Shown: one piece after another, positions 17,047 to 64,000 of the stretch
Position numbering within the stretch: the stretch's first letter is position 1
Layout: every line of letters starts with the position of its first letter
Origin: an uncultured Methylomirabilota bacterium
Lineage (GTDB): Bacteria > Methylomirabilota > Methylomirabilia > Methylomirabilales > 2-02-FULL-66-22
Reading direction: 5' to 3'
Assembly: GCA_963705305.1 (NCBI GenBank)
Contig: OY970067.1
Coordinates: 2,368,001-2,432,000 of the forward strand
Length of the DNA stretch: 64,000 nt
The notes under the pieces: model-generated
Told to the model about the DNA's origin: nothing
The model's input: the letters and a program-made list of their open reading frames with translations, nothing else
Database searches by the model: none
Position numbers and translations under genes: made by a program

Positions 17047-17051
17047 TCCGG

Positions 17052-48177: not shown

Positions 48178-49929
48178 CTAGGTCCGTGCTGCGGCTGGCC
48201 GCAGGGCGCGCGCCCTGCCAAACGCCCGCAGGGCGTCGTACGCCAGGAACAGCGCGAGGATCACCAGCGTGATGCCGATGGCCGCGGCGATCAGGTTCCC
48301 GAAGACGAACGGCGCCTTCAGGTTCGGTGCGAAGGCGGCCTGGAACGAGATCACCGCCGTCACCACCAACGCGGCAATCGTCGTGACATACAGGAATAGA
48401 GCCGGCCAGAGCGTCCACTGGTACGACTTGCCGGTCTGGGCTAGCCAGATGCTGACCAACATCAGCGACAAGCTGGCCAAGAGCTGGTTCGATCCGCCAA
48501 ACAGAATCCAGAGCCGGGACCAGAATCCGGTCCAGAAGAGTACCAGTGTGAGCGCGAGGCCGACGATCGAGCCGAAGTGGACGTTCTTGAAGGCGGGGAC
48601 CGCATCACCGACCAACTCCCCGCCGGCGATGCGCAGGAAGCGCAGGTTCAACTGCATCACCGTCAGTGCCATGATCACCAGGAATGCCGCACCGAATGCG
48701 CCCCCGAAGGCCTTGGGGATGCCGAGCACGTTCAGGTACTCAGCCATCCCGCCGGCAAACACCGCGCCCGGGCCGCCTCCCTTGGTGAGCTTGTCCATGT
48801 ACCCGGCGAAGCCGCCGAACGCCGTCACCGCGAACAGGACGGACACGATGGCCAGCACCGATTCCATGAACATCGCGCCGGCACCGACCGGGAGGGCGTC
48901 CGTCTCCTTCTCGAGCTGGCGCGCGGTCCCGGAACTGGATACCAGGCTGTGCCATCCGGACACCGCACCGCAGGCGACCGTCACGAACAAGATCGGCCAG
49001 AGCGGCGTGTCGAATCCCGGGGCGATAATCCCCTTGGCGGTGAACCCGGTAAACGCGGGGAAGTCCCCGAAGCTGGGCATGCGGAGGAAGATCCCGATAA
49101 CGGACCCCAGGATGCCCAAGAAGACGAGCCAGAATGCGATATAGTTCACCGGCTGGGCGAACCGCCAAATCGGGAGGACAGATCCGAGATAGCAGAATCC
49201 CAGGGCGACGATGCCCCAGAAAAATACGGACCACTTCATCGGCCCATACGGCGTGGCATACAAGACGAAGGAGTCCTTGCCGCCGTTGATCGCATCCACG
49301 ATCGCCCGGAAGGGCCCCGTGGTCCCGAGCCAGACCCCGATGATTCCGATTGCCACGCAGACCACCGTCGTCAGCAACAAGTCCTTCCGCCACTTGTACG
49401 TCATCTGGCCGGCCAGCATACCGGCCAGCGTCAGGATGATGAACCCGAGCGGCACGTTCGGGTTCGAGAAGATGCCCGCCACAATGGCCGAGAACGCGCC
49501 CAGGATCAGCAAGAGGTAGAAGTAAAGGAACGACAGGAGAATCGCCCGCGCCCGCGGCGAGATGAGCTTGTAGCTCAGGCCGCCCATCGTCAGCCCATCG
49601 TTGCGCATGGCCAGGACGGCCGCCGTGTAATCCTGGACCCAGCCGAGAAAGGTGACGCCCAGGACGAGCCAGATCAACGCCGGGGCGTAGCCCCACTGCA
49701 CGGCAACGATCGGACCGACGATCGGCCCCAATGCCGCGATGGACTTGAACTGGTATCCGAACAGGACGCTCGAGCTGGCTGGCATGAAATCGACGCCATC
49801 ATTGTACAGCTTGGCGGGTGTCGCCTTCGCGGGATCCGCGCCGATCACCGAGCGGTCGATGCCGCCCGAGTAGTACTTGTACCCGAGCCAATAAGCCACG
49901 ATCGCGACGAGAACGACGATGCCTCCCAT
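48178..49929 (-). CDS. cstA: carbon starvation CstA-family transporter
   Basis: 'TPA....DGVDF', 'SIAALGPIVGP', 'FVTVACGAVSGWH', 'LFGGSNQLLA'. Confidence 0.9.
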   Translation of the reverse strand: MGGIVVLVAIVAYWLGYKYYSGGIDRSVIGADPAKATPAKLYNDGVDFMPASSSVLFGYQFKSIAALGPIVGPIVAVQWGYAPALIWLVLGVTFLGWVQDYTAAVLAMRNDGLTMGGLSYKLISPRARAILLSFLYFYLLLILGAFSAIVAGIFSNPNVPLGFIILTLAGMLAGQMTYKWRKDLLLTTVVCVAIGIIGVWLGTTGPFRAIVDAINGGKDSFVLYATPYGPMKWSVFFWGIVALGFCYLGSVLPIWRFAQPVNYIAFWLVFLGILGSVIGIFLRMPSFGDFPAFTGFTAKGIIAPGFDTPLWPILFVTVACGAVSGWHSLVSSSGTARQLEKETDALPVGAGAMFMESVLAIVSVLFAVTAFGGFAGYMDKLTKGGGPGAVFAGGMAEYLNVLGIPKAFGGAFGAAFLVIMALTVMQLNLRFLRIAGGELVGDAVPAFKNVHFGSIVGLALTLVLFWTGFWSRLWILFGGSNQLLASLSLMLVSIWLAQTGKSYQWTLWPALFLYVTTIAALVVTAVISFQAAFAPNLKAPFVFGNLIAAAIGITLVILALFLAYDALRAFGRARALRPAAART

Positions 49930-50610
49930 ACCGGCCTCCTTCCCCGACTGTTGAAAAGGGCGGACGGGACACCGCAACGCACCCTGACGATTCGGCTATC
50001 CGGGCCTCACCTCCCTTCGCGTTCACGGTTACTGCGTTCCGAAGAGGATGGAACCGCCACGCGGTTCGGTGCGCCACGTGTGCGATTTCGAGAGCTATGT
50101 ATCGAGGCTCAAGTCGACAGGCTAGCCGGTGTGGGCCGGGGCCTTACCGGCTAGGATCATGCGGAGTGTGGCAGTTAACGAAACCCATAGAGCCTACCGC
50201 CGCCGTTCGCAGAAGTCAAGCCTCATGTTCGTTAGAAATATTCGTTAGAAAGGGACGTAGGCTCTAAAACAACGTGCTGAATTCCACCCTGCTCAAGGAC
50301 GTGGATCGTGCCTCGCTGGTATTGAATTCCTGCCGATACGAGGCCATAATTTCCTCAGGCAATCGGGACGAAGTAAGAAGGGTACCGGACGCCTTGTGAG
50401 CTGTAAGCGGTTGATTTTCATGAACTGAGATTGCTATTCTTTGCACGGGAGCAACCAGGCAGGTAGGGGTGCGGGCGTCGAGGAAGCGTTTCCGTGCCTC
50501 CGCACATTCAAGTACTTGGAGCCTAAAAATATCCAGTACCCTTTTTGTGACGAAGAGCCACTGGACCGAGCGGAGCGAGGCGCACCGAGCGAAGGCACGG
50601 GAGGTCTCCG

Positions 50611-51447
50611 GTGAGTGTCGATTACTCGCGCGAGAACGTGATGACCCTGGATCCCACGACGTTGAAAGCCATGATCACAGAGCGGGGGCATCACACGGTC
50701 GAAATTCAGCTGTATGAGGCGCTGGCCAAAGGGGGCGCGCTCGGGCCGACCGTCGGAAACGTCGTGCGGGAGCTGCTCGCAGTGTGGAGGGAGCGCGGAC
50801 TCCCCTCGGACAGCGGGGATCTGGCCTGGGTCCGTCGCCTCCTCGCCATGGCGGAAGCCGTCCAGAAGGGCGGGACGCTGGATTTGGCAGAGTTTGCCGG
50901 CACGCCGCTGGATGCGCGGGACCGGCAGGTTGTCGAGCGGCTGCTCTTCGAGCGGCGTTCGGTGCGCTACTGGACCGAGGAGGAGGTGCCCGATTGGATG
51001 ATCGACGAGATCATGCGGGCGGGCCTCTGGGCGGCCCATGGATGCAACCTCAACTCCCTGCGCTTTCTCGTGGTCCGGGAACGGAACGAGCCCGGCCTGT
51101 TTCGCGGCTCCGATATCCCCGGGGGCCCCGTGCACATCGTCGCCTGCCAGGACCGGCGCGTGTACTCGATCCAGCCGGGGTATGTGCAATACCCGGACAT
51201 GCTGGAGAAGAACCGCCTGCTGGACTGCGGGGCGGCGATGGAGAACATGGTGCTCATGGCCCACGCCCTGGGGCTGGGGGGCTGTTGGCTGACGTTCCGG
51301 AACGAGATGCTTGCCCGCATCCGGGAGCGATTCCACCTCCCCGCCCACATCGAGATCGTCACCTATGTCGACGTGGGCTTTCCCAAGCAAACGCCGATGC
51401 CCCCCGGCCGCATTGCCGTCCAGGATGCCGTCCTCGTCAGGCGGTAA
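50611..51447 (+). CDS. nitroreductase-family protein with an N-terminal extension
   Basis: 'RRSVRYW', 'DCGAAMENMVLMAHALGLGGCW'. Confidence 0.85.
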   Translation: MSVDYSRENVMTLDPTTLKAMITERGHHTVEIQLYEALAKGGALGPTVGNVVRELLAVWRERGLPSDSGDLAWVRRLLAMAEAVQKGGTLDLAEFAGTPLDARDRQVVERLLFERRSVRYWTEEEVPDWMIDEIMRAGLWAAHGCNLNSLRFLVVRERNEPGLFRGSDIPGGPVHIVACQDRRVYSIQPGYVQYPDMLEKNRLLDCGAAMENMVLMAHALGLGGCWLTFRNEMLARIRERFHLPAHIEIVTYVDVGFPKQTPMPPGRIAVQDAVLVRR

Positions 51448-51589
51448 CGGTGGCCGCCCGCCTGGGACAGGTGACGTAGAATACGGGACGTTGCGACATT
51501 ATTGACTTTATGCCACCGGGCCTGCCCGTAAGGGGCCTGGAAGCCTAACTCCGGGCCTCCGCCCCCTGCCCGGCACGCCAGGCGCTTCC

Positions 51590-51880
51590 AGCCAACTAGG
51601 TGATCCCGCCATTCGTCCCGGCGATCGGTCCTGACCGGGTCCCCCCCTTCCGGGCGTGAAGGCCGGGGCGATCACTTGACAGGCGATACCGGGGGCGCTA
51701 GGTTGCCGGTAAAGATCGGGGCCGGGGCCCTCCTCGCAGCAGGCCACCACCGGCCCGTCGGGATGCAAGGTCGCCAAAAGCGGCGAATCCGGCGGGACTC
51801 GGTCGGGATCGAACGGGATGACGGCCCGGACGATGTTCTCCTCTCCGACCGGGAGACGGATTCGCCAGGATCCGACCAAA
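51590..51880 (-). mobile_element. IS110 transposase N-terminal remnant
   Basis: 'ACCEEGP..DLYRQ...GIACQVIAP' plus a shifted 'DRVRTDRRD', matching IS110 DEDD motifs. Confidence 0.65.
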
Positions 51881-51909
51881 CCGTTTCACCCTTGGTTCGA
51901 ACGGGCAAC

Positions 51910-53163
51910 ATGCATACTTCTGCGGTGGAGACCCATCACGCGCTCCTGCGGATGCTTCTGTTTGAACCGCAGAAGGCAAGGGGCTTTCTGTTCGAGCATA
52001 ACGCCGAGACGGCGCCGTCCGTGCCCGTTCCCGACTGGTCCCGTCTTGGCGAAATGGCGGAACAGGAGGGGGTTTCCGCAGTTCTGTTCCATAACATCAA
52101 GAAGCATAACCTGCAACATCTCGTCCCGCCGGAATGCTACAGGGACTTGTCCAACCAGTTCCATGTCAACCTGAAGCGCAACCTGCTGGTCATCGGCGCA
52201 TTGCGGCAGGTGCTGGCATCCTTTCAGGAGGCCGGCATTCACTGCATCATCCTGAAGGGCATCGCCCTTGCAGAGCGCGTGTACCCGAATATTGCCATGC
52301 GGGGGATGTCAAACGTCGATATCCTGGTCAGGAAAGCGGATCTCTTCAACGCCGACGAACGTCTGTGCTCCTTAGGATACACTTCGCAAGACAGTACCGC
52401 GACACAGGCGATCCTTAACCCCGCCGGGTATCTCGCCAGCCTGGAATACCGCAAACATGAACCGGCCCCCTTAAGCCTTCACGTTCACTGGCATCCAGTC
52501 AATACGTCGATCCCGGCGGCCATCTTCGCCGAGCGTATCGATATCGACCGGCTCTTGGAACGCGCCACGGCGAGCGTCGTGGCCGACAGCCAGGCCTGGA
52601 TTCTGAGCCCGGAGCATCTGATCATCTACCTTTGCGAACACGCCCTGAGGATCGGCCATTCCTTTGACCGCCTGATTCTCGTCTGCGATATCTTTTACGC
52701 CATAAAGGCCTTTGAAGATACCATCGACTGGGACTTTCTTGTCGAGGAGAGCCGTCGCTTCAACCTCTCCCGGTTCGTGTATCACGGGCTGACCATCGTG
52801 AAATATCATACCTCGTTGAATATCCCGGAAGCGTGCATGGCAAAACTGCGACCGCCCGATATCTCATGGGGGGAAAGGTATTTTCTCACACTCCAGTTCA
52901 ACAACCGGCGAATCAGGGGGAGCAGTTACTTCATCTACCTGACGATGCACAGGGGCTTTTTCGCCAAGATCGCATTCATCGCCCGGACCGTCTTTCCGCC
53001 GGTCCGGATCCTCCGGCAGCGACAGTACCGGAAAGACGTTGCATTCTCAAAATCACTGTATCTCCAGCGAGCCAGGGAGATCATTTCGCACATTTTCCTG
53101 TGGTCCTTTAGCAGGGCGAGCGCTGCTCACGGCAAGAGAAAGATGACGAAGGCCCTTCAGTGA
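51910..53163 (+). CDS. nucleotidyltransferase family protein (NTP_transf_5-like, RiPP-associated)
   Basis: 'ILKGIALA..VYP..AMRGMSNVDILV', 'HVHW', 'HLIIYLCEH', 'DIF'. Confidence 0.8.
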   Translation: MHTSAVETHHALLRMLLFEPQKARGFLFEHNAETAPSVPVPDWSRLGEMAEQEGVSAVLFHNIKKHNLQHLVPPECYRDLSNQFHVNLKRNLLVIGALRQVLASFQEAGIHCIILKGIALAERVYPNIAMRGMSNVDILVRKADLFNADERLCSLGYTSQDSTATQAILNPAGYLASLEYRKHEPAPLSLHVHWHPVNTSIPAAIFAERIDIDRLLERATASVVADSQAWILSPEHLIIYLCEHALRIGHSFDRLILVCDIFYAIKAFEDTIDWDFLVEESRRFNLSRFVYHGLTIVKYHTSLNIPEACMAKLRPPDISWGERYFLTLQFNNRRIRGSSYFIYLTMHRGFFAKIAFIARTVFPPVRILRQRQYRKDVAFSKSLYLQRAREIISHIFLWSFSRASAAHGKRKMTKALQ

Positions 53164-54794
53164 CAACCAAGAAAGAACCATCCGGGCTGAATCGAGGGGA
53201 CTGCGGGACTGCTCTGCAGACGGAAGAAGCCACCTTCTTCGAGGAGTGGCTGGCCGCAGGCCAGCCCCCGGAGCAGCTCTCGATCAGCGCCGTCTGCAAC
53301 GCCCGCTGCCTCTTCTGCTCGAACCGGATGAATCCTTTCCCGGTCACGCAAAATGTGTTTCGGGACATTGAAGACGTCAAGCTGCAGCTCTCGTTGAGCT
53401 CCGCCAACCATCAGGGCGATATTCACATGAGCGATTCCCTGCCGGGGCGGATTTCGGAAGGGGAGGCCTTTCTGCACCCCCGGTTTTTTGACATTCTCAC
53501 CCTCGTCCGGGAAAAATTCCTGGCCAATTGCCTGCACTTCACGACCAACGCTTCCCTGCTCGACGAGCGTTTCGTGCAAAAACTCGAACCCTTCCGTCCG
53601 GTCGAAATCAACATTTCCCTGCACTCCACGCAGCCGAAGCTGTGGACCCGGATTTTCCAATCTTCGGAGAGACGAGCCCGGACTGCCTTGAACTCTTTTG
53701 ATCTTCTGAAGAAGCATCACATCGACTTTACGGGAACCATCGTCCCTTTGCCCCGAATTTGCGGGTGGAACGACCTCGAAAACACCTTTGCTTTCCTGGT
53801 GGGCGCGGGGGCCAAATCCATCATTCTGTGGTGGCCTGGGTTCTCGGAAAAAACGCCTGCCGGGTTAAAAAGGGAAATCGAATGCCCCTGGGATGAATTC
53901 GGGGATTTCGTGAAGCACATGCAGGAAAAGTTTCCACGATTTCCGGTGATCCCGCAGCCGAACCCGCTGGAGCCCCGGAGGTTGCCGATCAAGCGGATCA
54001 TGAATTTTACGCTTCAGGGAAACCTGAAGACCTTCGGGGGGGCTTTTCGGCACGTGCTGTGGCTCGTTTCCGAGGCAGCCTATCCGGAAATGTCCAAACT
54101 GGTGGCGGAATTTGCGCAGGATGTCCCCAATGAACACCATGTCTTCCCGGTAAGAAACAGATCTTATGGCGGCAACATCCAGGTCAGCGGGCTGCTGATG
54201 GTCTCAGACTTTCTGGCTGCGGGAACGGAGGCACTGCAGAGGTGGCCAGCCGTCGATCTCGTGCTTGTTCCCAAAATGGCGTTTGACGCCTTCTTTCGCG
54301 ATCTGCAGAAGACGCCTGCCTACAAGATTCCGGAAGGGCTGGGAAGAACTACGTGGTTGGTCTTTGAGAAGGGCTCGTTCCTTTCTCTCAAGGGTCGCGG
54401 GTTCGTCACGCCGGAGAATGATCCCCAAAAGACCCTTGAGAAGTTGCTGAAGGTCATTGACGAATCGATACAGGCGGACAAGCTTGATGTCCTTTCGGCG
54501 ATGGTTGCCGCCTTTCCGATTCCGACCTCGGAAGGCATTCTGAAAGAAGGGGAATTCGGGGACTTTTTGAAGGGGATCAAGAAGGGCCAGTCTCCGACCG
54601 GAGCGTTCGAGAAGCGCGTATTTGAAAAGCTTGACGACCATCGCGTTGTTTGCATGGAAGAGCGGCCGACCGCAGATCCGTCCGAAGCGTCTGCTCGCTG
54701 GGTATTTTTCAGGAGAATAGGAAAGGACTGGAAGCTGGAAATGATTTTCTTTTCGCGCATTTCTGTTGACAGTGGATCAGATGGTTCGCTATGA
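53160..54794 (+). CDS. radical SAM protein with a DUF512-like domain
   Basis: 'CNARCLFC', 'INISLHST', 'NRSYGGNIQVSGLL..DF'; GTGA overlap with the upstream gene. Confidence 0.8.
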   Translation: MTTKKEPSGLNRGDCGTALQTEEATFFEEWLAAGQPPEQLSISAVCNARCLFCSNRMNPFPVTQNVFRDIEDVKLQLSLSSANHQGDIHMSDSLPGRISEGEAFLHPRFFDILTLVREKFLANCLHFTTNASLLDERFVQKLEPFRPVEINISLHSTQPKLWTRIFQSSERRARTALNSFDLLKKHHIDFTGTIVPLPRICGWNDLENTFAFLVGAGAKSIILWWPGFSEKTPAGLKREIECPWDEFGDFVKHMQEKFPRFPVIPQPNPLEPRRLPIKRIMNFTLQGNLKTFGGAFRHVLWLVSEAAYPEMSKLVAEFAQDVPNEHHVFPVRNRSYGGNIQVSGLLMVSDFLAAGTEALQRWPAVDLVLVPKMAFDAFFRDLQKTPAYKIPEGLGRTTWLVFEKGSFLSLKGRGFVTPENDPQKTLEKLLKVIDESIQADKLDVLSAMVAAFPIPTSEGILKEGEFGDFLKGIKKGQSPTGAFEKRVFEKLDDHRVVCMEERPTADPSEASARWVFFRRIGKDWKLEMIFFSRISVDSGSDGSL

Positions 54795-54854
54795 AGGGTG
54801 TATCTTTATTGAACCTATTGAAAAGGATGCCGTAAGCGCAATAGGGGGAGGAAC

Positions 54855-55049
54855 ATGAAAGACGACAGGAAAGAGTGGGTCCCGCCCCAATTGATCGTCC
54901 TGGGCAGGGGAACGCCGGAGGAGAATGTCCTGGGCGGCTGCAAGACCTCAACGCTGACGGGTTCCGGCGCCACGAAGACCAGCTGCAAGAAAAAAACGGG
55001 TTCTACTTGCGCCTCAACCCGGTGCAGCACCATTTCCAAAACGTCTTAG
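54855..55049 (+). CDS. putative RiPP precursor peptide (64 aa)
   Basis: GGGGAGGA RBS; leader WxxPxL..PEENVLGG; 36-aa Cys/Thr/Ser/Lys-rich core. Confidence 0.85.
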   Translation: MKDDRKEWVPPQLIVLGRGTPEENVLGGCKTSTLTGSGATKTSCKKKTGSTCASTRCSTISKTS

Positions 55050-55059
55050 GTTTTCGTTC

Positions 55060-57033
55060 TTGGATAGACAAGCGAACCTCAGTAAAAGCGCGAGACGCAT
55101 CCCACGGCTGCCCCTCGAAGGCAACATCGATCTGACCTACCGGTGTAACTGCAACTGCCGCCACTGCTGGCTGTGGCTGCCGGCAAACGACAAAGTCGAG
55201 AAACGGGAGCTTTCATTCGACGACATCGATAGAATTGTGGGTGAAGCCCGGGCGATGGGCTGCCGCAGGTGGCTGATTTCCGGCGGCGAACCCATGCTGC
55301 GTCCCGACTTCGTCGATATTTTCGATATGATCACGCGCCGCTCGCTTTCCTATTCGCTGAATACGAACGGCACGCTGATCACGCCGACCATCGCCCGCCT
55401 GCTGCGAAGAAAAGGCGCGAAGATGGTCGCTCTCTACGGGGCGACCGCGGAAATCCACGATCACATTACGCGGACCCCCGGATCCTTTGCGGCGGTCCTG
55501 CGGGGTTTTGCCTACCTCCGGGAGGCCAGGGCGGGTTTCATCGTCCAGCTCATCCCCATGCGCGACAATTATCATGAGTTCGACGCCATGATGCGGCTCG
55601 CCCGCTCCCTGAGCCCCGTGTACCGCGTGGGCGCACCGTGGCTGTACCTTTCCGCCTGCCGCAGCGCCGTCCGCAACCGCGAAATTTCACGGCAGAGGTT
55701 GGACCCGGCGGATACGATCCGCGTCGAACCGCCCGATGCCGTCGATGACGATGGGCCGATGACCCAGATCGAGGGGGACGGCAAGCCGCCGTCCCGCCTT
55801 CAGCCCGGCGCAGACGGCCGGCTTTTCGAGGCCTGCATCGAAGGATGCCGGGATTTCCACATCGATCCCTACGGCGGTATGACCTTCTGCCCCTTCATCA
55901 AAGACCCTGCGCTGCGCTACAATCTGCGGAAGGGAAGTTTTCGGGAGGCATGGGATGCGTTCATCCCTTCGCTTGCCGAGAAGGTACACGCCGATCCGGA
56001 GTATGAGGAAAACTGCGGCCGCTGCGAAAAACGCGTGGATTGCCGCTGGTGCCCCGCCTATGCCTACCTGGAAGAAGGCCGATACTCGGCGAAGGTCCCG
56101 TACCTGTGCGCTCTTGCGGATGGAACGCGATCTTACAAGGAAAACTGGCTGCGGCATCACCGCCGGTATTTCCGAATTGCCGGCGTAACGATCCGGGTGG
56201 ATTCCGATCTTCCGTTCACGGAAAAGACCTTTGACCCGAAGTTCAAGAAGTTCGAAGCGGAGGGCCCGTCGGAAGATACGATTTCCTTGCGCCATCATTT
56301 TTCGGTCCCGAAATTTGACCGGGACGACACGGGCCAGGAGATGTACCGCCGGGCGCCCTGGGCGATCTACCGCAAGGGCCGATCCTGGATCTATCTGGGC
56401 ATCGGGCCCGGGCGGCGCGATCGATCTATCCACTGCGCGGCCGCATTTAATGAGGGGCATACGCGGGGGCGGATCTACAACCACGGCGAAGCCCGTTTTC
56501 GCCATGGGAACCTGCACGCCCTGACGCTGTTCCCCTCCGATCAGATCCTGCTGGCGCGGGCGCTTGCCGACCGCCAGGCCTGCTTTGTCCACGCCGCGGG
56601 GGTGGACATCGGCGGGAAGGGGCTCCTGCTGGTGGGGCATTCCGGAGCCGGGAAAACCACGGCGGCGAGAATGCTGCGGACGCATGGGGAAGTGCTCTGC
56701 GACGACCGGATCGTCGTGCGCCGCTGGCCGGAGGGGCTCCGCATCCACGGGACCTGGAGCCACGGCGAGCTGCCGGACGTGTCCGCCGGCTCCGCCCCGC
56801 TTTCCGCCATCCTGTTCCTCGAAAAGGCGGATGGAAACCGCCTCGTGCCGGTGACGAGGACCATCGAGATCGCGCGGCTTCTTGCCCAGCATGTGGTGAG
56901 GCCTCTGGTGACGGCCGACTGGTGGGAAAAGATCCTGGCCCTGGTAGACACCGTGGCGCGGGAGGCTCCGGCATACCGACTCGAGTTCGACAAGAGCGGC
57001 CGGATGATTGAGGATGTCGCGAAAATACTGTGA
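55060..57033 (+). CDS. radical SAM/SPASM enzyme fused to an HPr-kinase-like P-loop domain
   Basis: 'CNCNCRHC', 'GGEP', SPASM 'CGRC....DCRWCP'; C-terminal 'HAAGV..GHSGAGKTT..LCDD'; start uncertain. Confidence 0.85.
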   Translation: MDRQANLSKSARRIPRLPLEGNIDLTYRCNCNCRHCWLWLPANDKVEKRELSFDDIDRIVGEARAMGCRRWLISGGEPMLRPDFVDIFDMITRRSLSYSLNTNGTLITPTIARLLRRKGAKMVALYGATAEIHDHITRTPGSFAAVLRGFAYLREARAGFIVQLIPMRDNYHEFDAMMRLARSLSPVYRVGAPWLYLSACRSAVRNREISRQRLDPADTIRVEPPDAVDDDGPMTQIEGDGKPPSRLQPGADGRLFEACIEGCRDFHIDPYGGMTFCPFIKDPALRYNLRKGSFREAWDAFIPSLAEKVHADPEYEENCGRCEKRVDCRWCPAYAYLEEGRYSAKVPYLCALADGTRSYKENWLRHHRRYFRIAGVTIRVDSDLPFTEKTFDPKFKKFEAEGPSEDTISLRHHFSVPKFDRDDTGQEMYRRAPWAIYRKGRSWIYLGIGPGRRDRSIHCAAAFNEGHTRGRIYNHGEARFRHGNLHALTLFPSDQILLARALADRQACFVHAAGVDIGGKGLLLVGHSGAGKTTAARMLRTHGEVLCDDRIVVRRWPEGLRIHGTWSHGELPDVSAGSAPLSAILFLEKADGNRLVPVTRTIEIARLLAQHVVRPLVTADWWEKILALVDTVAREAPAYRLEFDKSGRMIEDVAKIL

Positions 57034-57060
57034 AACGTCCCCGCCGATCGGGATCACGGC

Positions 57061-58245
57061 ATGACGGAACGCACGTATGTTGATAAGAGGAATATCGGTC
57101 ATGCCCCCCACTGGGGAGGAGAGGGGCCTCCCGCGGTTCATCTCGACATCGAGCTAACGGAGCGCTGCAACAACACCTGCATCCACTGCTGCATCAACAA
57201 ACCGGCTGGGGACAAGCGGAGCCTGGCCCGCGAGCTTGAGACCTCCGCCTGGAAGGACATCCTCCGCCAGGCCGCCGAGCTGGGGGTGATGACGGTCCGT
57301 TTCACCGGCGGCGAGCCGCTGCTCCGGCAGGATTTTTCCGACCTGTACCTGTTTGCGCGCCGCCTCGGGCTGAAGGTGATGCTGTTCACCAACGCCCGGC
57401 TCATCGGGCCGCACATCGCCGCACTGCTGGCCGATGTTCCCCCCCTCGAAGATATCGAGATTTCCGTATACGGCATGAGCAGGGAGTCCTATGAAGCCGT
57501 CACGGGCGTTGACGGTTCTTACGCCGAGTTCCGCAATGGCGTGCAGTGTCTGCTCGACAGAAAGATCCCTTTCGCTGTAAAAGGAGCGCTGCTGCCGCCC
57601 AATAAACATGAAATGGCGGAATTCGCTGCCTGGGCGGCCGCCAACACTCGGATGGATATCCCTCCCACGTACGCCATGTTCTTTGACCTGCGGGGGCGGC
57701 GGGATTCCGCCGCCAAAGACAGCAGGATCAGGCGCCTGCGCGTCTCTCCCGAAGAGGGCCTGCAGATCCTCACCCGGCATCCGGACCGGTACCTGAAGGA
57801 GATGTCCGAATTCTTTGAAAGGTATTCATCGCCTCCCGGTGACCGGCTGTTCACCTGTGGAATCGGACCGGGTTGCGTGGATGCCTACGGTGTTTTCCAG
57901 CCCTGCCTGTCGCTCCGACACCCCGATTTGACTTCTGATTTAAAAAGAGGCGCCCTGAAAGAAGCCCTGGCGTCCGGAGTCACCCGCCTTCGAGAAATGA
58001 AGGCCACGAATCCGCTTTATCTCAAACGATGCGCACGCTGTTTCCTGAGGGGCTTCTGTGAGCAATGCCCGGCCAAGTCATGGTCTGAACACGGCACGCT
58101 GGACAGGCCGGTCGAATACTGCTGCCGGGTGGCCCATGCGCAGGCCCGGTTTCTGGGGCTCGTCATGGAGAAAGAACGGGCATGGGAGGTCCGCGACAGC
58201 GCAGAAAGAATACAGAACCTCAGAAGGAGAGTGGCGGCGACATGA
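57061..58245 (+). CDS. radical SAM/SPASM enzyme
   Basis: 'CNNTCIHC', 'GGEP', 'CARC....FCEQCP...YCC'. Confidence 0.9.
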   Translation: MTERTYVDKRNIGHAPHWGGEGPPAVHLDIELTERCNNTCIHCCINKPAGDKRSLARELETSAWKDILRQAAELGVMTVRFTGGEPLLRQDFSDLYLFARRLGLKVMLFTNARLIGPHIAALLADVPPLEDIEISVYGMSRESYEAVTGVDGSYAEFRNGVQCLLDRKIPFAVKGALLPPNKHEMAEFAAWAAANTRMDIPPTYAMFFDLRGRRDSAAKDSRIRRLRVSPEEGLQILTRHPDRYLKEMSEFFERYSSPPGDRLFTCGIGPGCVDAYGVFQPCLSLRHPDLTSDLKRGALKEALASGVTRLREMKATNPLYLKRCARCFLRGFCEQCPAKSWSEHGTLDRPVEYCCRVAHAQARFLGLVMEKERAWEVRDSAERIQNLRRRVAAT

Positions 58246-58550
58246 AGAAGATACGGATGGACATGGTTTTTTCCCACTCCAGCGATGTGGTGTCGAGGGA
58301 AATTGACGGCGCTTTGATTATCGTCCCCCTCACATCCGGCGTGGGCGATATGGAAGACGACCTGTTTTCCATGAATGAATCCGGTACGGAAATCTGGAGC
58401 ATGCTGGACGGCAAAAAGACCTTGCAAGAGATCGTCGAGGCCCTGGCTCGGCAATACCATGCCGAGCCGGGAGAGATCGAACGGGACGTCGCTGGAATCG
58501 TCGAGGAATTGCTCAAAAGGAGAATGCTTGTCGAAGCGACCGCCGCGTGA
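58242..58550 (+). CDS. PqqD-family RiPP recognition element
   Basis: 'SREIDG..IIVP', 'MNESGTEIWSMLDG..TLQEIVEAL..QY', 'DV..IVEEL'. Confidence 0.9.
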   Translation: MKKIRMDMVFSHSSDVVSREIDGALIIVPLTSGVGDMEDDLFSMNESGTEIWSMLDGKKTLQEIVEALARQYHAEPGEIERDVAGIVEELLKRRMLVEATAA

Positions 58551-59058
58551 ATACCTGCATCCCGCGATGCGGAAAGTCGGCCTGCCCCTTTCCGGAGAGG
58601 CCCTGATTGCGCTCATGCAGACTGTGCATGGGAAAGGATTCCCCTTCCGATTCAGCGCCGGCGGATACAGCATGACGCCCTTCATCAGGGATGGCGACGT
58701 GATCACCGTCTCTTCCCTGGCTTCGCATGCGCCGCGTCGGGGGGACGTCGTGGCGTTCGTCCACCCGGAAACACAACGGCTTTGCCTGCACCGGGTGCTG
58801 TCCGTCCATGGAGACAGCTTCTTCATCCAGGGCGACAATATGCCTGAAAGACCGGACGGTGTGATTCCGCGAGAGGCGATTCTCGGGCGGGTCACGGGTA
58901 TCGAGCGCGCCGGCAGGAGAGTCAGACTGGGGCTCGGCCCCGAACGCCTGCTGGTCGCCATTCTGAGCCGATGCGGAGGCATGGCCCTGACCCGGCGGTA
59001 TGCCGGCTGGCTCCATGCCTATTTCAGCAGGAGCCACGGATCGTGCGAAAAGCGTTAG
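58528..59058 (+). CDS. S24/S26-family peptidase (probable leader peptidase)
   Basis: 'GYSMTPFIRDGD', 'GDVVAF', 'LHRV', 'QGDN'; start approximate. Confidence 0.8.
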   Translation: MSKRPPREYLHPAMRKVGLPLSGEALIALMQTVHGKGFPFRFSAGGYSMTPFIRDGDVITVSSLASHAPRRGDVVAFVHPETQRLCLHRVLSVHGDSFFIQGDNMPERPDGVIPREAILGRVTGIERAGRRVRLGLGPERLLVAILSRCGGMALTRRYAGWLHAYFSRSHGSCEKR

Positions 59059-60188
59059 TATCCTATACGAGCCTGCCCGATTTTGCGCTCTGGGATGCAC
59101 TCGGGGACAGGCGGATTCCGCTGTCCTTCGATCTCGAGGTGACCGCCCGCTGCAACAACAATTGCCGTCATTGCTACATCAACCTCCCGCCGGACGATAG
59201 CGCGGCTCTGCGTGATGAACTGACGCTGGAGGAAATCAGCCGCATTGCGGACCAGGCTGTCTCCCTCGGGTCCCTCTGGTGCCTGATAACGGGCGGCGAA
59301 CCTCTTCTCCGAGCAGATTTTCCTGATCTGTACCGGCTGCTGAAGAGCAAGGGCCTGTTGGTTTCCCTTTTTACCAATGCCTGCCTGGTCACGGAGAAGC
59401 ACATACAACTGTTCAGGAGCTATCCCCCGCGGGATATCGAGGTCACCGTGTATGGCGCCACGGGCGAGACGTATGAACGGGTGACCCGTAGTTCCGGCTC
59501 CTATGCGGCGTTCCGCCGCGGCCTGACCCTGCTGCTCGAGGGGGGGGTCAAGGTGAATCTGAAGACCATGGTGCTGCGTTCCAATAAGCATGAACTGCCG
59601 GCTATCGCCCGTTTCTGCCGAGAAAGAACGAAAGGCCCTTTTCGCTTCGATCCCATGCTGCACCTGCGGTTTGACGGAAACGAGCGAAGAAACGATGAAA
59701 TACGCGCAGAGAGGCTGACGGCCGAGGAGATCATCGGGATTGAACAGGCGGATCCGGAGCGGTTGGCGGCCATGGAAAAGAGATGCGGCATGCTGGAGAC
59801 AGCCGCCGCCGAGGCAGGACCGGATTATCGTCTTTTTCAGTGCCAGGCGGGAGGAGAGAGTTTCGCCGTGAGCTGCAACGGTCTCTTCCGTCTCTGCTCG
59901 TCTCTGTGGCAGCCTGACTGTCTCTACGATCTGTGCCAGGGCACGCTGGCCGAAGCCTGGTTCGATTTCACCCCGCGGATACGCGCAATCACCTCGGACA
60001 ACACTGAATATCTCGAGACCTGCCGCCTGTGTCCCCTCATGAATCTGTGCCAATGGTGCCCCGCCCATGCCCATCTGGAGTGCGGCCGCATGGATGAACG
60101 GTGTGGATACTTCTGCCGCGTGACACAGGCACGGGCGGAAGCGTTCGGGAAGCGGGAAAAGGCGGCATCCACATCCGAAGAAAGATGA
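59043..60188 (+). CDS. radical SAM/SPASM enzyme
   Basis: 'CNNNCRHC', 'GGEP', 'CRLC....LCQWCP...YFC'. Confidence 0.9.
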   Translation: MRKALVSYTSLPDFALWDALGDRRIPLSFDLEVTARCNNNCRHCYINLPPDDSAALRDELTLEEISRIADQAVSLGSLWCLITGGEPLLRADFPDLYRLLKSKGLLVSLFTNACLVTEKHIQLFRSYPPRDIEVTVYGATGETYERVTRSSGSYAAFRRGLTLLLEGGVKVNLKTMVLRSNKHELPAIARFCRERTKGPFRFDPMLHLRFDGNERRNDEIRAERLTAEEIIGIEQADPERLAAMEKRCGMLETAAAEAGPDYRLFQCQAGGESFAVSCNGLFRLCSSLWQPDCLYDLCQGTLAEAWFDFTPRIRAITSDNTEYLETCRLCPLMNLCQWCPAHAHLECGRMDERCGYFCRVTQARAEAFGKREKAASTSEER

Positions 60189-60208
60189 AGGGCTTATCCT
60201 GCTCCCAG

Positions 60209-60385
60209 TGAAGTCGACGCCACCCTGACGCTCTGGGGGGATCCCTGGCGCGGAGGTGGCTACGGTCGACAACAGTCCCGAGCCCGTGGAACGCTGGATT
60301 GCCAAGGGCCGAGCGGCGCTCGTGCTCGCCATCCCGAAGGGGGAGACGACAATCGCGGAGGCCGCCCGCCGGCACGGCCTCAGGG
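60209..60385 (+). mobile_element. IS3-family OrfA (DUF1153-like) remnant
   Basis: '[30 protein letters not shown]', truncated; preceded by a TG-starting end. Confidence 0.65.
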
Positions 60386-63013
60386 CCGGTCGAGGCGGCC
60401 GACCTGGACAGGCACGCGCGGAAGATCGCCGTCATGGGGGAGGGGCAGGAAATCGGGGCCCCACACCGCCAGCTCCAGCTCGTACCGCCCGGGGGCGGGA
60501 GGCGCGGGGATCACCCAGGCCACGGGAACGGCTTGGCCGGGAAACACGTCGTCCGGGAGGGGGACAAGGTCGGTCGAGACGGGGCGCCCCGCCAGGAGCC
60601 AGCGCGTCCGCAGGATGAAGCATCCGAAGTAGGACCGGGGCGTGGCCAGCCACAGGGCGCTCCGGCCCGCTCCCCAGATCGGCCACTCCGCCCCCAGCTC
60701 GGGCAGGTCCGCCGAGGCATACCAGAGGGCGAGATCGTGAAGCGTGGCGAGCCGTCGGAACGGCATCGCGTCGGCGGTGCCGCGGGCGGTGGGCCGCCAC
60801 GGGACGGCTCCGACATTTCGGACCAGCGCCGACGCCTGGATCGGCTGGCTGACGCCGACCGCCAGCTCCGGGGGCCCGAGCCAGGTCAGCGCCGCGCGGG
60901 GCTCTCCGCTCGAGGACGCTTCCGGGGAGACGAGGACGGGCCGGACCAGGCGGAAGACGTCTCCCCCTATCTCCAGACGGTAACTCCCCGGGGACCGGGG
61001 GGTTTCCAGGGGGAGGGCGGTCAGGTACTGACCCCCCGCCGGCAGGAGCGTCGGGAGGTAGGTCGCGACACGCTCCTCGACCCGGGGGCCGCCGTCCGCT
61101 GGAATCCAGGTCACCCGGACCGGTCGGATCCCGAGGGGGCCGGGGTTGACCCACGGGGCTCCGGATCGTTCCAGGAGGAGGAGCCGGAGCCGGAGCGGGC
61201 GCCCGGCGGGAAGGCCCGCAGGCAGCGATGCCTCCGCATCCAGGCCGGCTGCCCGCCGCGAGGCGGGCGGGATGCGATACAGCTGGATGTCCGGCAAGGC
61301 AAGGATCCGCTCCAAACCCGGGATCGGCGGCGCGCCCTGGCGCCAGGCGGCGCGCGCCGCCTCGGGCAGCGCATCCAGGTGCACCGCCAGTGTCCGAACG
61401 CCCAGGGCGCCCAGCGCCTCCACGACGCGGGGGGACAGCCCTTCGCCGTTCACCAGGGCGGCGATCTCGTAGTAGGAGCCGGGCCGGAATCCGGAATAGC
61501 CGTTGACCAAGGGCGCCCAGTCGCGCGTACTCTGCAGCGCGTAGGTGGCCTCGGTCAGCGGGTCGTAGATGGAAAAGGGGATCTCCAGGACGGCGCCCTC
61601 CGCGGCTCGCTCGCGCAGGATTCGGGTGACCGCAGCGTCGCCGAGGGACACGGGCCGGAGGGGGACGGGGACATGGAGGGCCTCCAGCGTCATGGCCGCC
61701 AGGGCGAGGCCTCCCAGGATGGCGCCGGGCTGCGGCAGCGCCGGCCGTCGCTCCCGCAGGAAGTCGGCGAGGCGGGCGAGACCGGCGGCCGCGAAGAGGG
61801 CCAGGGGGACGAGGGCGAGGAGCGCGAAGCGGGCGGGGACGCGAATGCCGCCGAGCCCCGGCAGGCCAAGGAACAGACCGAGATAGGGGAGCGGCCACTG
61901 GGCCGGGGCGTCGCCCCAGATCAGGATGGGGCCGAGCGCCAGGACCAGGGCCGTCGCGCCCACCAGGGCCAGCGCAGGCGCTGCGGCGGGCCAGGCCGCC
62001 CCCCCGCGCGTGGCGACCCGCCGCCGGGACGCCAGCCCCCAGGCGGCCAGGCCCCAGGGCAGGAGGCCGAAGAAGAGGGCGCTCTCCCAGGGAGCATCCC
62101 GGCGCCGGAACTTGGCCGTGGCGGCCCCGTAGAGCCAGTTGGCCTGGTCGGCGGCAAGAAAGCTGGCCGGCTCGGCGCTGTAGCGCACGAGGTCGCCGAG
62201 GCCACGCTGATAGCCCCACTGGGCTTGCGAGTGGGCATAGGGGAGCGCCACGGGGAGAAAGAGGAGGGCCCCGACGAGCAGGGCGACGGCGAGGTGCGAC
62301 AGGGCCTGCAGGCGAGGCCATCGCCCCCGCTCCTGCCAGGTGCGCACCGCCAGGTAGGGGACGAGGAGAAGCCCTGCCATGATGCCCAGGTAGGCAGAGC
62401 TGAGGAACTGGCACCAGAGCAGACCGCTGGCGGCCACAGCTAGGGTCCACCGCGGCCGCCGGAGCCACGCCTCCACGGCCAGGAAGACCAGGGGAGTCCA
62501 CCAGGCGGACGACAGCTGCAGGTGAACCAGGTGCGGGAAGCGGGGGAGCGCGAACGCGTACACGAACCCCGCCACCAGGGCGGGCCCCCGGCGTCCGAGG
62601 AGGGCCCAGGCCAGCCAGGCCATGCAGAGTCCATTGAGGACGAAGGCGCCCAGCAGGGTCAGATTGCAGGCGAGGATGGGATTCCCCGTCAGAAAGTAGA
62701 GCGGGGCGAAGAGCGGCTGGTCGCCCAGCAGGCTGTCCGAGAAGGCCAGCGCATCGCGGGCCGGGTAGAATATGTTGGCCTGAAAGAGCCGCAGGGGGGC
62801 ATGAGCTAGTGCATGGGCCCCCCAGCTCAGGATGTAGGCGGTGAGAGGGGGGTCGGAGGCGCTGGCGAGGTTTTCGTGGGTGATGAGGTGATCAGTGAGA
62901 TGCGCCGCCAGCGGCCAGGTCAGGCCCACGGCGGTGATCGCGTAGAGGGCGAGAGCGCCAAGGAACAGGCGGGCTGTCGGGCGGCCTGCGGGCGAAGGCC
63001 CGGGCTGAGACAT
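60380..63013 (-). CDS. multi-TM membrane protein, GT-C/YfhO-like glycosyltransferase
   Basis: 'LTWPLA', 'DP....YILSW', 'ANIFYP', 'IRVPARF', 'LVNGYSG'; C-terminal extracytoplasmic domains. Confidence 0.7.
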   Translation of the reverse strand: MSQPGPSPAGRPTARLFLGALALYAITAVGLTWPLAAHLTDHLITHENLASASDPPLTAYILSWGAHALAHAPLRLFQANIFYPARDALAFSDSLLGDQPLFAPLYFLTGNPILACNLTLLGAFVLNGLCMAWLAWALLGRRGPALVAGFVYAFALPRFPHLVHLQLSSAWWTPLVFLAVEAWLRRPRWTLAVAASGLLWCQFLSSAYLGIMAGLLLVPYLAVRTWQERGRWPRLQALSHLAVALLVGALLFLPVALPYAHSQAQWGYQRGLGDLVRYSAEPASFLAADQANWLYGAATAKFRRRDAPWESALFFGLLPWGLAAWGLASRRRVATRGGAAWPAAAPALALVGATALVLALGPILIWGDAPAQWPLPYLGLFLGLPGLGGIRVPARFALLALVPLALFAAAGLARLADFLRERRPALPQPGAILGGLALAAMTLEALHVPVPLRPVSLGDAAVTRILRERAAEGAVLEIPFSIYDPLTEATYALQSTRDWAPLVNGYSGFRPGSYYEIAALVNGEGLSPRVVEALGALGVRTLAVHLDALPEAARAAWRQGAPPIPGLERILALPDIQLYRIPPASRRAAGLDAEASLPAGLPAGRPLRLRLLLLERSGAPWVNPGPLGIRPVRVTWIPADGGPRVEERVATYLPTLLPAGGQYLTALPLETPRSPGSYRLEIGGDVFRLVRPVLVSPEASSSGEPRAALTWLGPPELAVGVSQPIQASALVRNVGAVPWRPTARGTADAMPFRRLATLHDLALWYASADLPELGAEWPIWGAGRSALWLATPRSYFGCFILRTRWLLAGRPVSTDLVPLPDDVFPGQAVPVAWVIPAPPAPGRYELELAVWGPDFLPLPHDGDLPRVPVQVGRLDRP

Positions 63014-63198
63014 GCTCAGGCGTTCCCGCACGGCATCAGCCCGGACATGTCACGTACACCGCGGAGGCGCCAAAGGCGCGGAGACAACGACAGCCTCCTC
63101 GAGCTTGCGGAGGGGGGCCTTGCATCCTCGTGTTCCGTGCTCCCCCATCCGGGGACGGGCAAACGCACGGGATCGCGCCGGCGCGATTCCCACAGCTT

Positions 63199-63360
63199 TA
63201 TCCCTTTCTGGTGAAAGAGGCCGCTTCCCCACGTGGTGCTTCCTCGATATTGGTGAGGGCGTGCAGCAAGCCAGCTGCTCACCCAGCCTGGACGACGAAG
63301 AACCCAGCCGCAACGATGCGGGACAATACCGCACGTGTCAAGCAGTTCCGAAGCCCGGAG
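63199..63360 (+). mobile_element. decayed left end of an element related to the IS110 at 46-47.7 kb
   Basis: aligns by eye with the reverse complement of ~47590-47735; encodes 'ATMRDNTARVKQFR' versus 'ATLRDNATRVKRFR'. Confidence 0.7.
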
Positions 63361-63549
63361 GCGGGCTTGTGGATGGGGTAGAGATCAGGTCGATTTGGGG
63401 ACGCAGCAGGTCTTGTCAGTGTATTGTGTGTGGGGAGGGTCGCCCGGGAGGACAATGAGGCTGAATTGTCCTGGTCTTGTCGGCCGTCGCCGTCAGAAAC
63501 ACGGAAGCCCCCTGACCCCGGGGGCCAGGAGGCAGTCAGCGTCGTGTCC

Positions 63550-64000
63550 TCAACGGGATGTGGGAGACGGCGACGGACTCGTGGGCGGCGCGGTCGTGGG
63601 TGGGACGACGGTCAGCCAGCCGGAGGGGCATTTCTTGACATAGGGGTAGTAGGCGCGGGAATCCGGGCAGTAGTACCAGTAGATGGGGGGCGGCGCGGGC
63701 TCTTGCTGGAAGTACACGGGTGGAGGCGGCGGAGACGCCACCGGCGGTGCGTAGTAGGGGGAGGCGTAGTCCGGGTACGCGGGTCCCCACCACCACGGAG
63801 CTCCCCACCAGATGTCGGGCCCGATCACGACGCCGCCGTCGCCGCCACCATGCCCATGAAAAACTCTCCCCCCATGCCGGCCGCCCCACGCATGGCGGGC
63901 ACCCCCATGCCCGTGAAAGTTCTCACCCCGCCTCGCGAGCGCCGGCGATGACGCGCCGAACAGGAGGGCTGTCATCAGCAGGACCGCAGGAATGATCTTC
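63550..64000 (-). CDS. Pro/Gly/His-rich secreted hypothetical protein (5' end may lie outside the window)
   Basis: signal-like N-terminus, 'WWGAPWWWGP', conserved-looking 'YWYYCPDSRAYYPYVKKCPSGW'. Confidence 0.7.
   Translation of the reverse strand, partial: KIIPAVLLMTALLFGASSPALARRGENFHGHGGARHAWGGRHGGRVFHGHGGGDGGVVIGPDIWWGAPWWWGPAYPDYASPYYAPPVASPPPPPVYFQQEPAPPPIYWYYCPDSRAYYPYVKKCPSGWLTVVPPTTAPPTSPSPSPTSR

Follow-up and report, generated by a model that had tools for sequence, protein, structure and literature searches.

What does a kinase-like domain do at the end of a radical S-adenosylmethionine (radical SAM) peptide maturase, and which residue of which peptide would it phosphorylate? The question is raised by a gene at 55060..57033 (+) in a 64,000-nucleotide stretch of DNA from an uncultured Methylomirabilota bacterium (GenBank assembly GCA_963705305.1, contig OY970067.1, positions 2,368,001 to 2,432,000), the whole of which is called the window below. 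A first-pass annotation of the window had described the gene as a radical SAM/SPASM enzyme fused to an HPr-kinase-like domain, lying beside a precursor peptide that ends in Ser, and had proposed that a tailoring module of lasso peptide clusters had been grafted onto the pathway of a ribosomally produced and post-translationally modified peptide (RiPP) made by radical SAM chemistry. We regard it as virtually certain that the gene encodes a genuine fusion of a radical SAM/SPASM maturase with a ScmC-type domain within a RiPP operon. Judged from its gene families, the operon joins a phospho-tailoring and processing set, of the kind seen in linear polyphosphorylated peptide (LPP) and paeninodin pathways, to three radical SAM/SPASM paralogues and a further radical SAM enzyme of DUF512 type. 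Phosphorylation of the precursor by the ScmC domain appears likely on the sequence evidence, and we put the probability that the acceptor is the C-terminal Ser, together with the whole course of maturation proposed below, at about 0.6.

A radical SAM/SPASM domain and a ScmC-type domain in one enzyme

The fusion gene reads from a TTG start through 657 amino acids in a single frame without an internal stop, and its product divides into a radical SAM/SPASM part (residues 1–367) and a ScmC-type part (residues 368–657, 290 amino acids). Every particular of the first-pass description, that is, the open reading frame (ORF) at 55060–57033, the HAAGV, GHSGAGKTT and CDD motifs and a domain of about 290 amino acids past SPASM, was found as described. 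In a full-length AlphaFold2 (AF2) model (predicted local distance difference test (pLDDT) 88.8, predicted template modelling score (pTM) 0.81), helix 347–367 passes directly into strand 368–373, and no low-confidence linker is present at the domain junction.

The C-terminal domain (56161..57033, +) is assigned to the ScmC family of P-loop, kinase-like proteins with the fold of HprK and phosphoenolpyruvate carboxykinase (PEPCK) by profiles, fold and conservation of catalytic motifs, and the agreement of the three upholds the HPr-kinase-like label that it had been given. With the domain alone as query, NCBIfam ranked ScmC first (E 2.6e-11), before HprK-related kinase B (3e-8) and HPr(Ser) kinase (2.8e-7); none of the three reached its curated cut-off. 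Precomputed annotation assigns the Pfam family PF27840.1 (ScmC) to the database entry identical to this protein and to each of the 120 listed homologues, the local Pfam scan being without this match, and in a protein atlas, where PF27840 carries the name ScmC, the nearest clusters were likewise ScmC (score 0.98). AF2 modelling of the domain with 63 homologues gave one folded unit (pLDDT 96.4, pTM 0.92). The whole domain, including its beta-rich N-terminal half, aligned on the PEPCK core (Z 13.2, 236 aligned residues, root-mean-square deviation 4.8), and the P-loop half (model residues 138–290) aligned on HprK/P 1kkl_C (Z 11.1, 119 aligned residues, root-mean-square deviation 2.8). Foldseek matched HprK/P entries at E-values from 2.6e-5 to 1.5e-4, and a sequence search of the PDB with the domain listed only HprK/P and no lasso-peptide or RiPP kinase structure.

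The catalytic motifs were located by script as HAAGV at 511–515 (His511), a Walker A motif GHSGAGKTT at 526–534 and LCDDR at 546–550 (D548-D549-R550), and a phmmer alignment to L. casei HprK/P 1jb1 places the His, GxSGxGK and DDR elements in register. Their conservation was scored in a set of 63 mostly standalone and a set of 26 fused homologues. The His is present in 61/63 and 25/26 sequences and the P-loop Lys in 62/63 and 25/26; the first Asp is kept in 53/63 (with Glu in 5 more) and 25/26, the second in 56/63 (with Glu in 6 more) and 21/26, and the Arg that follows in 60/63 and 22/26. The complete motif set is retained by 75 of the 82 domains encoded in the collected loci. Going by these counts, the catalytic residues appear to be under selection and the domain looks like an active kinase domain rather than a relic. 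It shares with HprK/P and ATP-dependent PEPCK the P-loop fold and the His, Walker A and DD-R elements in register, but is only 11–23% identical to them, has no HPr or carbon-catabolite genes in its context, and its substrate is predicted to be a ribosomal peptide.

The N-terminal domain (55060..56160, +) is a radical SAM/SPASM peptide maturase according to its Radical_SAM match (PF04055, 72.9 bits against a cut-off of 29.5) and its Cys motifs. A CX3CX2C motif, located by script at C29/C33/C36, is invariant at all three Cys in the 26 fused homologues. The seven-Cys SPASM motif has the form C-x9-15-G-x4-C ... C-x2-C-x5-C-x2/3-C ... C, and SPASM-type Cys occur here at C259 (followed by G-x4-C277), in C319-x2-C322-x5-C328-x2-C331 and at C350, in columns that are invariant or at least 90% conserved among the fused homologues. 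No SPASM model was listed in the Pfam scan of the fusion protein; the region overlaps sub-threshold SPASM-family matches, for example that of a mycofactocin maturase over residues 24–329. The best NCBIfam matches of the domain were all to radical SAM/SPASM families and all sub-threshold. Models of StsB, AlbA, SkfB and PqqE are among the sub-threshold matches of the radical SAM/SPASM enzymes, and the best curated radical SAM model, of AhbD type, scored 118.9 bits with 500 required. Because no curated family was reached, the chemistry and the type of cross-link are not assignable from the sequence; thioethers are our guess as the most likely cross-link, from the four conserved Cys of the precursor and the SPASM type of the enzymes. 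The system resembles those of the sactipeptide and ranthipeptide maturases (StsB, AlbA, SkfB) and of PqqE/PqqD in the CX3CX2C and seven-Cys SPASM motifs, in Cys-containing leader peptides and in a PqqD-type recognition element. By contrast, the operon here has three maturase paralogues, one of which bears a kinase domain.

The N-terminal domain is 31% identical to the second radical SAM/SPASM maturase of the operon (57061–58245). None of the three radical SAM/SPASM proteins has an N-terminal recognition domain, their CX3CX2C motifs beginning at residues 29, 36 and 60. The paralogy is visible in the DNA as a family of 56-nucleotide direct repeats (55121–55176, 57143–57198 and 59128–59183; 64–75% identity) that are the CX3CX2C-coding segments of the three genes, and as a second repeat pair (56041–56081 and 60048–60088) that corresponds to the SPASM C-x2-C-P-A segment.

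The precursor peptide and its conserved C-terminal Ser

The precursor, 64 amino acids in length, is encoded at 54855..55049 (+), with a strong Shine-Dalgarno sequence GGGGGAGG 8 bases before its ATG. It ends in ...ISKTS, so that its last residue is Ser64, as had been claimed. Its leader contains two motifs, W8-V-P-P11-Q-L13 (WxxPxL) and P22-E-E-N-V-L27 (PEExVL), and a core with four Cys begins at about C29-K30. With this precursor as phmmer query, 81 small ORFs were collected from the related loci, of which 78 carry the pattern [WYF]xxPx[LIVMS]; these were reduced to 77 distinct sequences. A C-terminal Ser is found in 73 of the 77 (the others end in Thr twice, in Cys once and in Asp once), compared with a background of 11.5% Ser-terminal frames among the stop-to-stop ORFs of 40–120 amino acids in the same loci. 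In the genome loci taken by themselves, 45 of 48 precursor ORFs are Ser-terminal. Four Cys are present in 53/77 precursors, and Lys follows the first Cys in 63/77.

W8, P11, E23, C29, C44 and C57 do not vary among 56 aligned precursors, and conservation at L13, L26 and K30 is 90% or above. Conserved Ser or Thr positions are absent from the interior of the peptide: Ser or Thr reaches at most 19/56 at any position from +1 to +7 past the first core Cys, as against 53/56 for the terminal Ser. We therefore take the C-terminal Ser to be the likeliest phospho-acceptor of the fused enzyme.

The only detected precursor that ends in Asp (...APTD) belongs to locus L007, from a Methanoregula metagenome-assembled genome (MAG) (fusion gene 7965–9941, precursor 12325–12540). 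The ScmC domain of its fusion has a degenerate Walker A motif, GHPEADKTP, and keeps DDR. In this single case an encoded charge may stand in place of phosphorylation, which hints that a negative charge at the C-terminus is the functional end point.

Predicted leader docking and the probable site of phosphorylation

A complex of the kinase domain with the precursor was predicted from custom alignments of both partners in the presence of ATP and Mg, conditions under which the benchmark for the complex-score mark (passed by 116/157 solved complexes and 2/215 mismatched pairs) gives rough counts. The complex score was 0.65 (0.65, 0.66 and 0.63 in separate runs) and passed this mark, whereas three controls came to no more than 0.01. 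The runs share at least 39% of their contacts, with a partner pLDDT of at least 38. The interface is formed by precursor residues 20 and 22–28, the conserved PEENVLG, with residues 62–69, 125–132, His144, 160–161 (P-loop) and 243–249 in the numbering of the domain. The model thus supports binding of the second leader motif by the kinase domain. It did not place the C-terminal Ser confidently in the active site, and was counted neither for nor against that site.

The model can also be read in favor of another acceptor, since residues 20–28 lie in the cleft by His144 and the P-loop and so residues 29–33 would be the part of the core nearest to the active site. The kinase might then act, as LppK does, on an internal Ser or Thr near the leader-core junction (T31, S32 or T33), the terminal Ser being kept for another enzyme. 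This reading has a precedent in the one characterised pathway that also has a signal-peptidase-I-like (SpI-like) peptidase, where LppK polyphosphorylates core Ser3 of the leader-bearing LPP precursor (PMC13381572), and C-K-T-S/T is kept in the close clade of the window's operon. It is, however, unlikely in view of the alignment: beyond the weak conservation at each of positions +1 to +7, a Ser or Thr anywhere from +2 to +5 occurs in just 34/56 precursors, while 53/56 are Ser-terminal.

Alternatively, the ScmC domain might serve mainly as an ATP-binding scaffold: by docking the leader it would bring the substrate to the fused radical SAM domain, or set the timing of its arrival there, and no phosphate would be left on the peptide. 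The sole confident contacts of the model are indeed those with the conserved leader motif, all three radical SAM/SPASM proteins are free of an N-terminal recognition domain, no flexible linker separates the two domains of the fusion (pTM 0.81), and the ScmC domain is a core rather than an accessory component of its cassette. But a scaffold would not need the His, the Walker A Lys, the DD pair and the Arg, which are kept in about 90% or more of the members, nor would it explain the conserved C-terminal Ser, and the related HprK-like enzymes of RiPP pathways are proven kinases. We consider this reading slightly less probable again than that of an internal site.

The operon and a proposed course of maturation

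Gene families were assigned by Pfam and NCBIfam scans of eleven ORFs. The operon consists of eight genes, all on the + strand and some with stop/start overlaps, in the order PF14907 nucleotidyltransferase, DUF512-type radical SAM enzyme, precursor, fusion, radical SAM/SPASM, PqqD, S26-like protease and radical SAM/SPASM. The nucleotidyltransferase that had been linked to further decoration is thus present, as is a discrete PqqD-type RiPP recognition element (RRE). The nucleotidyltransferase (PF14907, NTP_transf_5; 51910..53163, +; E 1.3e-49, 169.5 bits) opens the operon in the close clade and ends in a stop codon that overlaps the start of the gene after it; its own start was set at a Met within the ORF that opens at 51676, picked to fit orthologues of 407–412 amino acids in loci L083 and L087. 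The fourth radical SAM enzyme (53160..54794, +) has a DUF512-like C-terminal part (Radical_SAM 40 bits, cut-off 29.5; DUF512 32 bits, cut-off 25) and a CX3CX2C motif within CNARCLFC. It is found mainly in the close clade, where orthologues in metagenome loci score 786–1138 bits.

Downstream of the fusion lies the second radical SAM/SPASM maturase (57061..58245, +; Radical_SAM 66.8 bits), with sub-threshold matches of StsB, ScmE and PqqE type, followed by the PqqD-family RRE (58242..58550, +; 63.2 bits, cut-off 23.4), the start of which overlaps the preceding stop and for which the lasso, GeoRSP, ScmD and HPr-rel-A PqqD models were all sub-threshold. The next gene (58567..59058, +, its start taken as the Met after the PqqD stop) encodes a soluble S26/S24 protease of the signal peptidase I type and is a candidate leader peptidase (Peptidase_S26 25.3, cut-off 22.9; S24 24.2, cut-off 23.3); against the archaeal-type signal peptidase I model TIGR02228 it scored 42 bits (E 8.4e-11), short of the cut-off of 51.85. 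The third radical SAM/SPASM maturase (58971..60188, +; Radical_SAM 72.5 bits) is 37% identical to the second; the coordinates are those of the maximal ORF, and the true start may be slightly downstream of 58971.

Conservation of this arrangement was counted in the 23 related loci whose flanks extend to 4 kb or more upstream and 6 kb or more downstream. The second and third radical SAM/SPASM genes and PqqD are each present in 23/23, the S26-like protease in 21/23 and a detectable precursor in 20/23; the DUF512-type enzyme occurs in 7/23 and the nucleotidyltransferase, searched with a single-sequence query, in 12/23. The close clade (72–86% identity) retains the order of the window from the nucleotidyltransferase through the third radical SAM/SPASM gene, and the order nucleotidyltransferase, DUF512-type enzyme, precursor and fusion is shared by L083, L086, L087, L090 and L092. 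In L087, an 83%-identical relative, a MsbA-like ABC exporter (ABC_membrane plus ABC_tran, 15177–17066) begins within the end of the last radical SAM gene.

These assignments can be arranged into the following course. The PqqD protein would bind WxxPxL of the 64-amino-acid precursor, and the kinase domain would dock on the second leader motif, PEExVL, as modelled. Using ATP, the kinase domain would phosphorylate a Ser of the leader-bearing precursor, most likely Ser64, and the nucleotidyltransferase may extend the Ser64 phosphate. The radical SAM/SPASM enzymes, themselves devoid of a recognition domain, would cross-link the core around its four conserved Cys, with thioethers the likeliest product, and the S26 peptidase would cut off the leader between PEExVL and C29-K30. 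By being fused, the two domains probably link phosphorylation to radical chemistry on a single docked substrate. More tentatively, and with considerable doubt on our part, the kinase domain may double as the substrate recruiter of the radical SAM domain through PEExVL, so that one docking event times both Ser phosphorylation and cross-linking, and a phosphate, or a phospho-sugar made by action of the PF14907 enzyme, stays on the mature thioether peptide.

Several points weigh against this course. We infer all of its central elements, namely the phosphorylation itself, its site, the order of the steps and the nature of the cross-links. The domain misses the gathering score of Pfam Hpr_kinase_C (24.5 bits for the whole protein and 26.1 for the domain, against 33.3) and scores 43.4 bits against a cut-off of 125 for the ScmC model TIGR04249. 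The precursors were all collected through their likeness to a single query, and about 30 of the 77 are near-copies from the close clade and not independent. In the complex model, whose partner fold is uncertain, it is the leader motif rather than Ser64 that lies beside His144 and the P-loop, and in the closest characterised system with the same type of peptidase the kinase site is core Ser3 and not the last residue. The nucleotidyltransferase, present in just 12/23 loci, is therefore non-obligatory, and no exporter of MsbA-like or other type was found by ORF and Pfam scan of 50611–60188.

The limited distribution of the nucleotidyltransferase also bears on a third alternative, in which phosphorylation is real but transient, priming the Ser so that it can be eliminated or undergo more chemistry at the C-terminus, or only gating leader cleavage, and the mature product is free of phosphate: with the gene in 12/23 loci only, a phosphate-extending step is not universal. 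On the other hand, the conserved genes include no lyase, phosphatase or other candidate for a follow-up step, and the Asp end and degenerate P-loop of L007, single case though it is, fit a lasting negative charge better. We rate a transient phosphate as improbable, below both of the preceding alternatives.

Relation to known systems

The first-pass annotation had taken lasso peptide clusters as the parallel for this operon, and its account of that background agrees with the pseudomycoidin report. There, the C-terminal Ser receives between one and three phosphates from PsmK, an HprK-family enzyme that is inactive as D158A/D159A, and PsmN, described as an 'uncharacterised nucleotidyltransferase', adds a hexose to the phosphate (PMC6993621). 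The tailoring enzymes PadeK, PsmK and PsmN and their clusters thus resemble the present set in the HprK-family kinase with its DD site, the nucleotidyltransferase, a WxxP-type leader and a PqqD-like RRE, likeness to PadeK, PsmK and LppK being drawn from published descriptions. By contrast, the peptide scaffold here would be made by radical SAM/SPASM enzymes, to one of which the kinase is fused, and no Asn-synthetase-like cyclase or B2 transglutaminase-like protease was among the Pfam and NCBIfam matches of the eleven ORFs.

The LPP pathway of Bacillota (LppA/K/B/S/D/N; Popov et al., Nat Commun 2026, PMC13381572) is a closer parallel than the lasso clusters, sharing as it does a signal-peptidase-like leader peptidase with the operon. 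The SpI-like LppS requires the RRE LppB and cuts unphosphorylated peptide poorly, the kinase acts on the leader-bearing precursor, and the leader motif is [Y/W]xxPx[L/V/I/F/A] (PMC13381572). The operon contains the HprK-like kinase, the discrete RRE, the SpI-like peptidase and the nucleoside triphosphate (NTP) transferase of the LPP/paeninodin gene set, and its precursor has a leader motif of LPP type (W8 and P11 invariant, L13 at least 90% conserved in the 56 precursors). In terms of that published description it has every LPP core function but the exporter, and adds four radical SAM enzymes. The differences are nevertheless considerable. Radical SAM enzymes are absent from the LPP pathway, the main text of its report being free of the words radical, SPASM and rSAM, the LPP kinase is a separate protein that acts on core Ser3, and LPP cores are long and variable rather than four-Cys and Ser-ended (PMC13381572). 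LPPs and paeninodins are described in the same source as restricted to Bacillota, whereas the family of the window spans many phyla and archaea.

Among named systems, the operon comes closest to the uncharacterised SynChlorMet (SCM) cassette, with its HprK-like ScmC, PqqD relative ScmD and paralogous radical SAM/SPASM proteins ScmE and ScmF (TIGR04249, TIGR04248, TIGR04250 and TIGR04251). The context is the same, a PqqD relative and two radical SAM/SPASM genes lying by ScmC (57061–60188 in the window, and in all 23 well-flanked loci). The equivalog cut-offs of the four NCBIfam models are, however, missed by far (ScmC 43.4/125, as noted above, ScmD 30.5/100, ScmE 83.6/400, ScmF 90/400), and TIGR04249, which matches 58/63 relatives, does so weakly, with a best E-value of 1.1e-13; the family is therefore a sister clade and not an equivalog. 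Unlike in the SCM cassette, ScmC is here fused to a third radical SAM/SPASM domain, and the operon adds the S26 peptidase, PF14907 and the DUF512-type enzyme. We know of no product of the SCM cassette.

Given that the kinase-like protein is an old and named core component (ScmC, PF27840) of a very large radical SAM/PqqD family, the idea of a graft stands only in part: a kinase is indeed fused to a maturase beside radical SAM enzymes, as proposed, but the locus is not a one-off transfer of a lasso module. What is joined to radical SAM chemistry is a set of kinase, recognition protein, signal-peptidase-like protease and nucleotidyltransferase, and for the kinase the joint is physical. To our knowledge, lasso peptides and Bacillota LPPs are the only substrates on which HprK-like peptide kinases have been demonstrated to act. 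The family itself, with thousands of members in many bacterial phyla and in methanogens, is catalogued as ScmC or SCM-like but unstudied; the present analysis spells out its precursors, the recognition motifs that they carry and the probable phospho-acceptor. Literature searches, to which subscription journals and bioRxiv supplements were out of reach, returned no paper on SynChlorMet or on an HprK/radical SAM RiPP, no report of a product of the family, and mention of an HPr kinase alongside radical SAM RiPPs for lasso clusters only. The terms kinase and phosphoryl gave no match in two surveys of radical SAM RiPPs (PMC10288494 and PMC10114670). Should it be a cross-linked phosphopeptide, the product of the operon would represent a new RiPP class from anaerobic bacteria and methanogenic archaea, and a function would be assigned to the long-standing 'SynChlorMet' cassette.

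Distribution and integrity of the fusion

Of 8000 candidates scored against the whole protein in a word-indexed search, 1808 reached E <= 1e-3. The 120 best of these, one of which is the window's own protein, are 573–703 amino acids long, cover 86–100% of the query at 57–85% identity, and all carry PF04055 together with PF27840 in the precomputed Pfam annotation. A survey of loci for recurrence of the fusion found both halves in one open frame in 34/72 loci from one-genome-per-species contigs and in 26/51 metagenome loci. The record titles of these loci name Omnitrophota, Chloroflexota, Acidobacteriota, Aminicenantes, Desulfobacteraceae, Methanoregula and a cultured Methanocella, and the fusion is thus spread over bacteria and methanogenic archaea.

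For the ScmC domain alone, the family comprises 5135 representative clusters at E <= 1e-3. Its 150 best representatives divide into 87 that are standalone, 19 that are fully fused, 8 that have a partial N-terminal extension and 36 that are partial domains, some of the 'standalone' calls from metagenomes possibly being truncated or frameshifted genes. In the genome set, 12 loci have no radical SAM domain in the ScmC frame, and 11 of them (all but L051) have just two other radical SAM/SPASM genes; there is no separate gene of the fused type in those 11, indicating that the N-terminal radical SAM domain is absent rather than split off. Fused and unfused forms are interleaved in a quick tree of 115 domains (36 partial-domain representatives of the 150 excluded), in which the starred branches require at least 8 changes of state and the parsimony count is 21. 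With 53 of its 112 inner branches open after a quick search only, we limit the claim to this, that the fusion state does not form one clean clade.

The continuity of the frame, on which the first-pass annotation had made the fusion depend, was examined with assembled contigs of other runs, as distinct from raw reads, and those contigs bridge the junction without gaps. Near-identical contigs from two other runs span the domain junction (about 56160) with 1 and 0 differing letters, and a 5142-nucleotide contig of a relative about 90% identical spans 55403–57100 with 0 gaps. The source genome is one contig of 5.65 Mb in which the fusion gene, and its domain, is present in one copy. None of the public runs contains at least half of the sampled words of the stretch, and there was no RNA data set among the matches listed. 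That the fusion is an assembly or gene-calling artefact uniting two separate genes is next to impossible, and the sequence data refute it to the extent that such data are able to, for although the sole close orthologue within the genus (G013, 83% identical) has a frameshifted gene and standalone ScmC proteins of about 300 amino acids are common (87 among the best 150 representatives), the G013 frameshift lies near residue 250, within the radical SAM domain and away from the junction, single-frame fusions occur in the 34/72 and 26/51 independent loci and in 119 further listed protein clusters, and the junction, crossed by independent contigs without gaps, has neither linker nor stop.

The frameshift of G013 (locus L074, G013:C10:171348-175217) is located at about 1138–1154 in a variable, low-confidence insert that corresponds to model residues 230–248, and represents either a pseudogene or an error of MAG assembly. 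Within the order, seven other relatives (six in the genus and one in another family) match only at 30–35% identity, as do G011:C55 and G018:C39; all such frames are 296–355 amino acids in length, the size of standalone proteins, except that of G014 with 711. A second and more distant type of cassette was seen in L035, L037, L039, L041, L043, L045, L046, L055, L056, L057 and L067, in the order PqqD, one radical SAM/SPASM gene, a standalone ScmC-like gene (39–84 bits to the domain of the window) and an S26-like peptidase, to which PF14907 is sometimes fused or which it sometimes follows. No precursors were detected in this type with the precursor of the window as query.

Genomic neighbourhood of the operon

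Downstream, the operon is followed by a convergent gene for an 883-amino-acid membrane protein without Pfam matches (60380–63031, −). Its upstream neighbours are a nitroreductase-family gene (50611–51447, +) and a CstA-type carbon-starvation/pyruvate transporter gene (48178–49977, −). The nitroreductase gene was considered as a cluster member and rejected: it occurs in 0/23 well-flanked related loci, and is therefore probably outside the operon. Further upstream lies an IS110-family transposase gene (DEDD_Tnp_IS110, 60 bits; 46433–48082, −), about 3.8 kb from the start of the nucleotidyltransferase gene at 51910. A composite transposon was likewise rejected, there being no long direct or inverted repeat that flanks the cluster within 45500–64000. 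The G+C content of the operon is 54–65%, compared with 65–76% in its flanks, and the counterpart of the operon in the relative L083 has as its flanking genes an IS110 transposase, which apparently lies within another PF14907 gene, and an rve integrase. The IS110 neighbours and the contrast in G+C content suggest that the operon is horizontally mobile.

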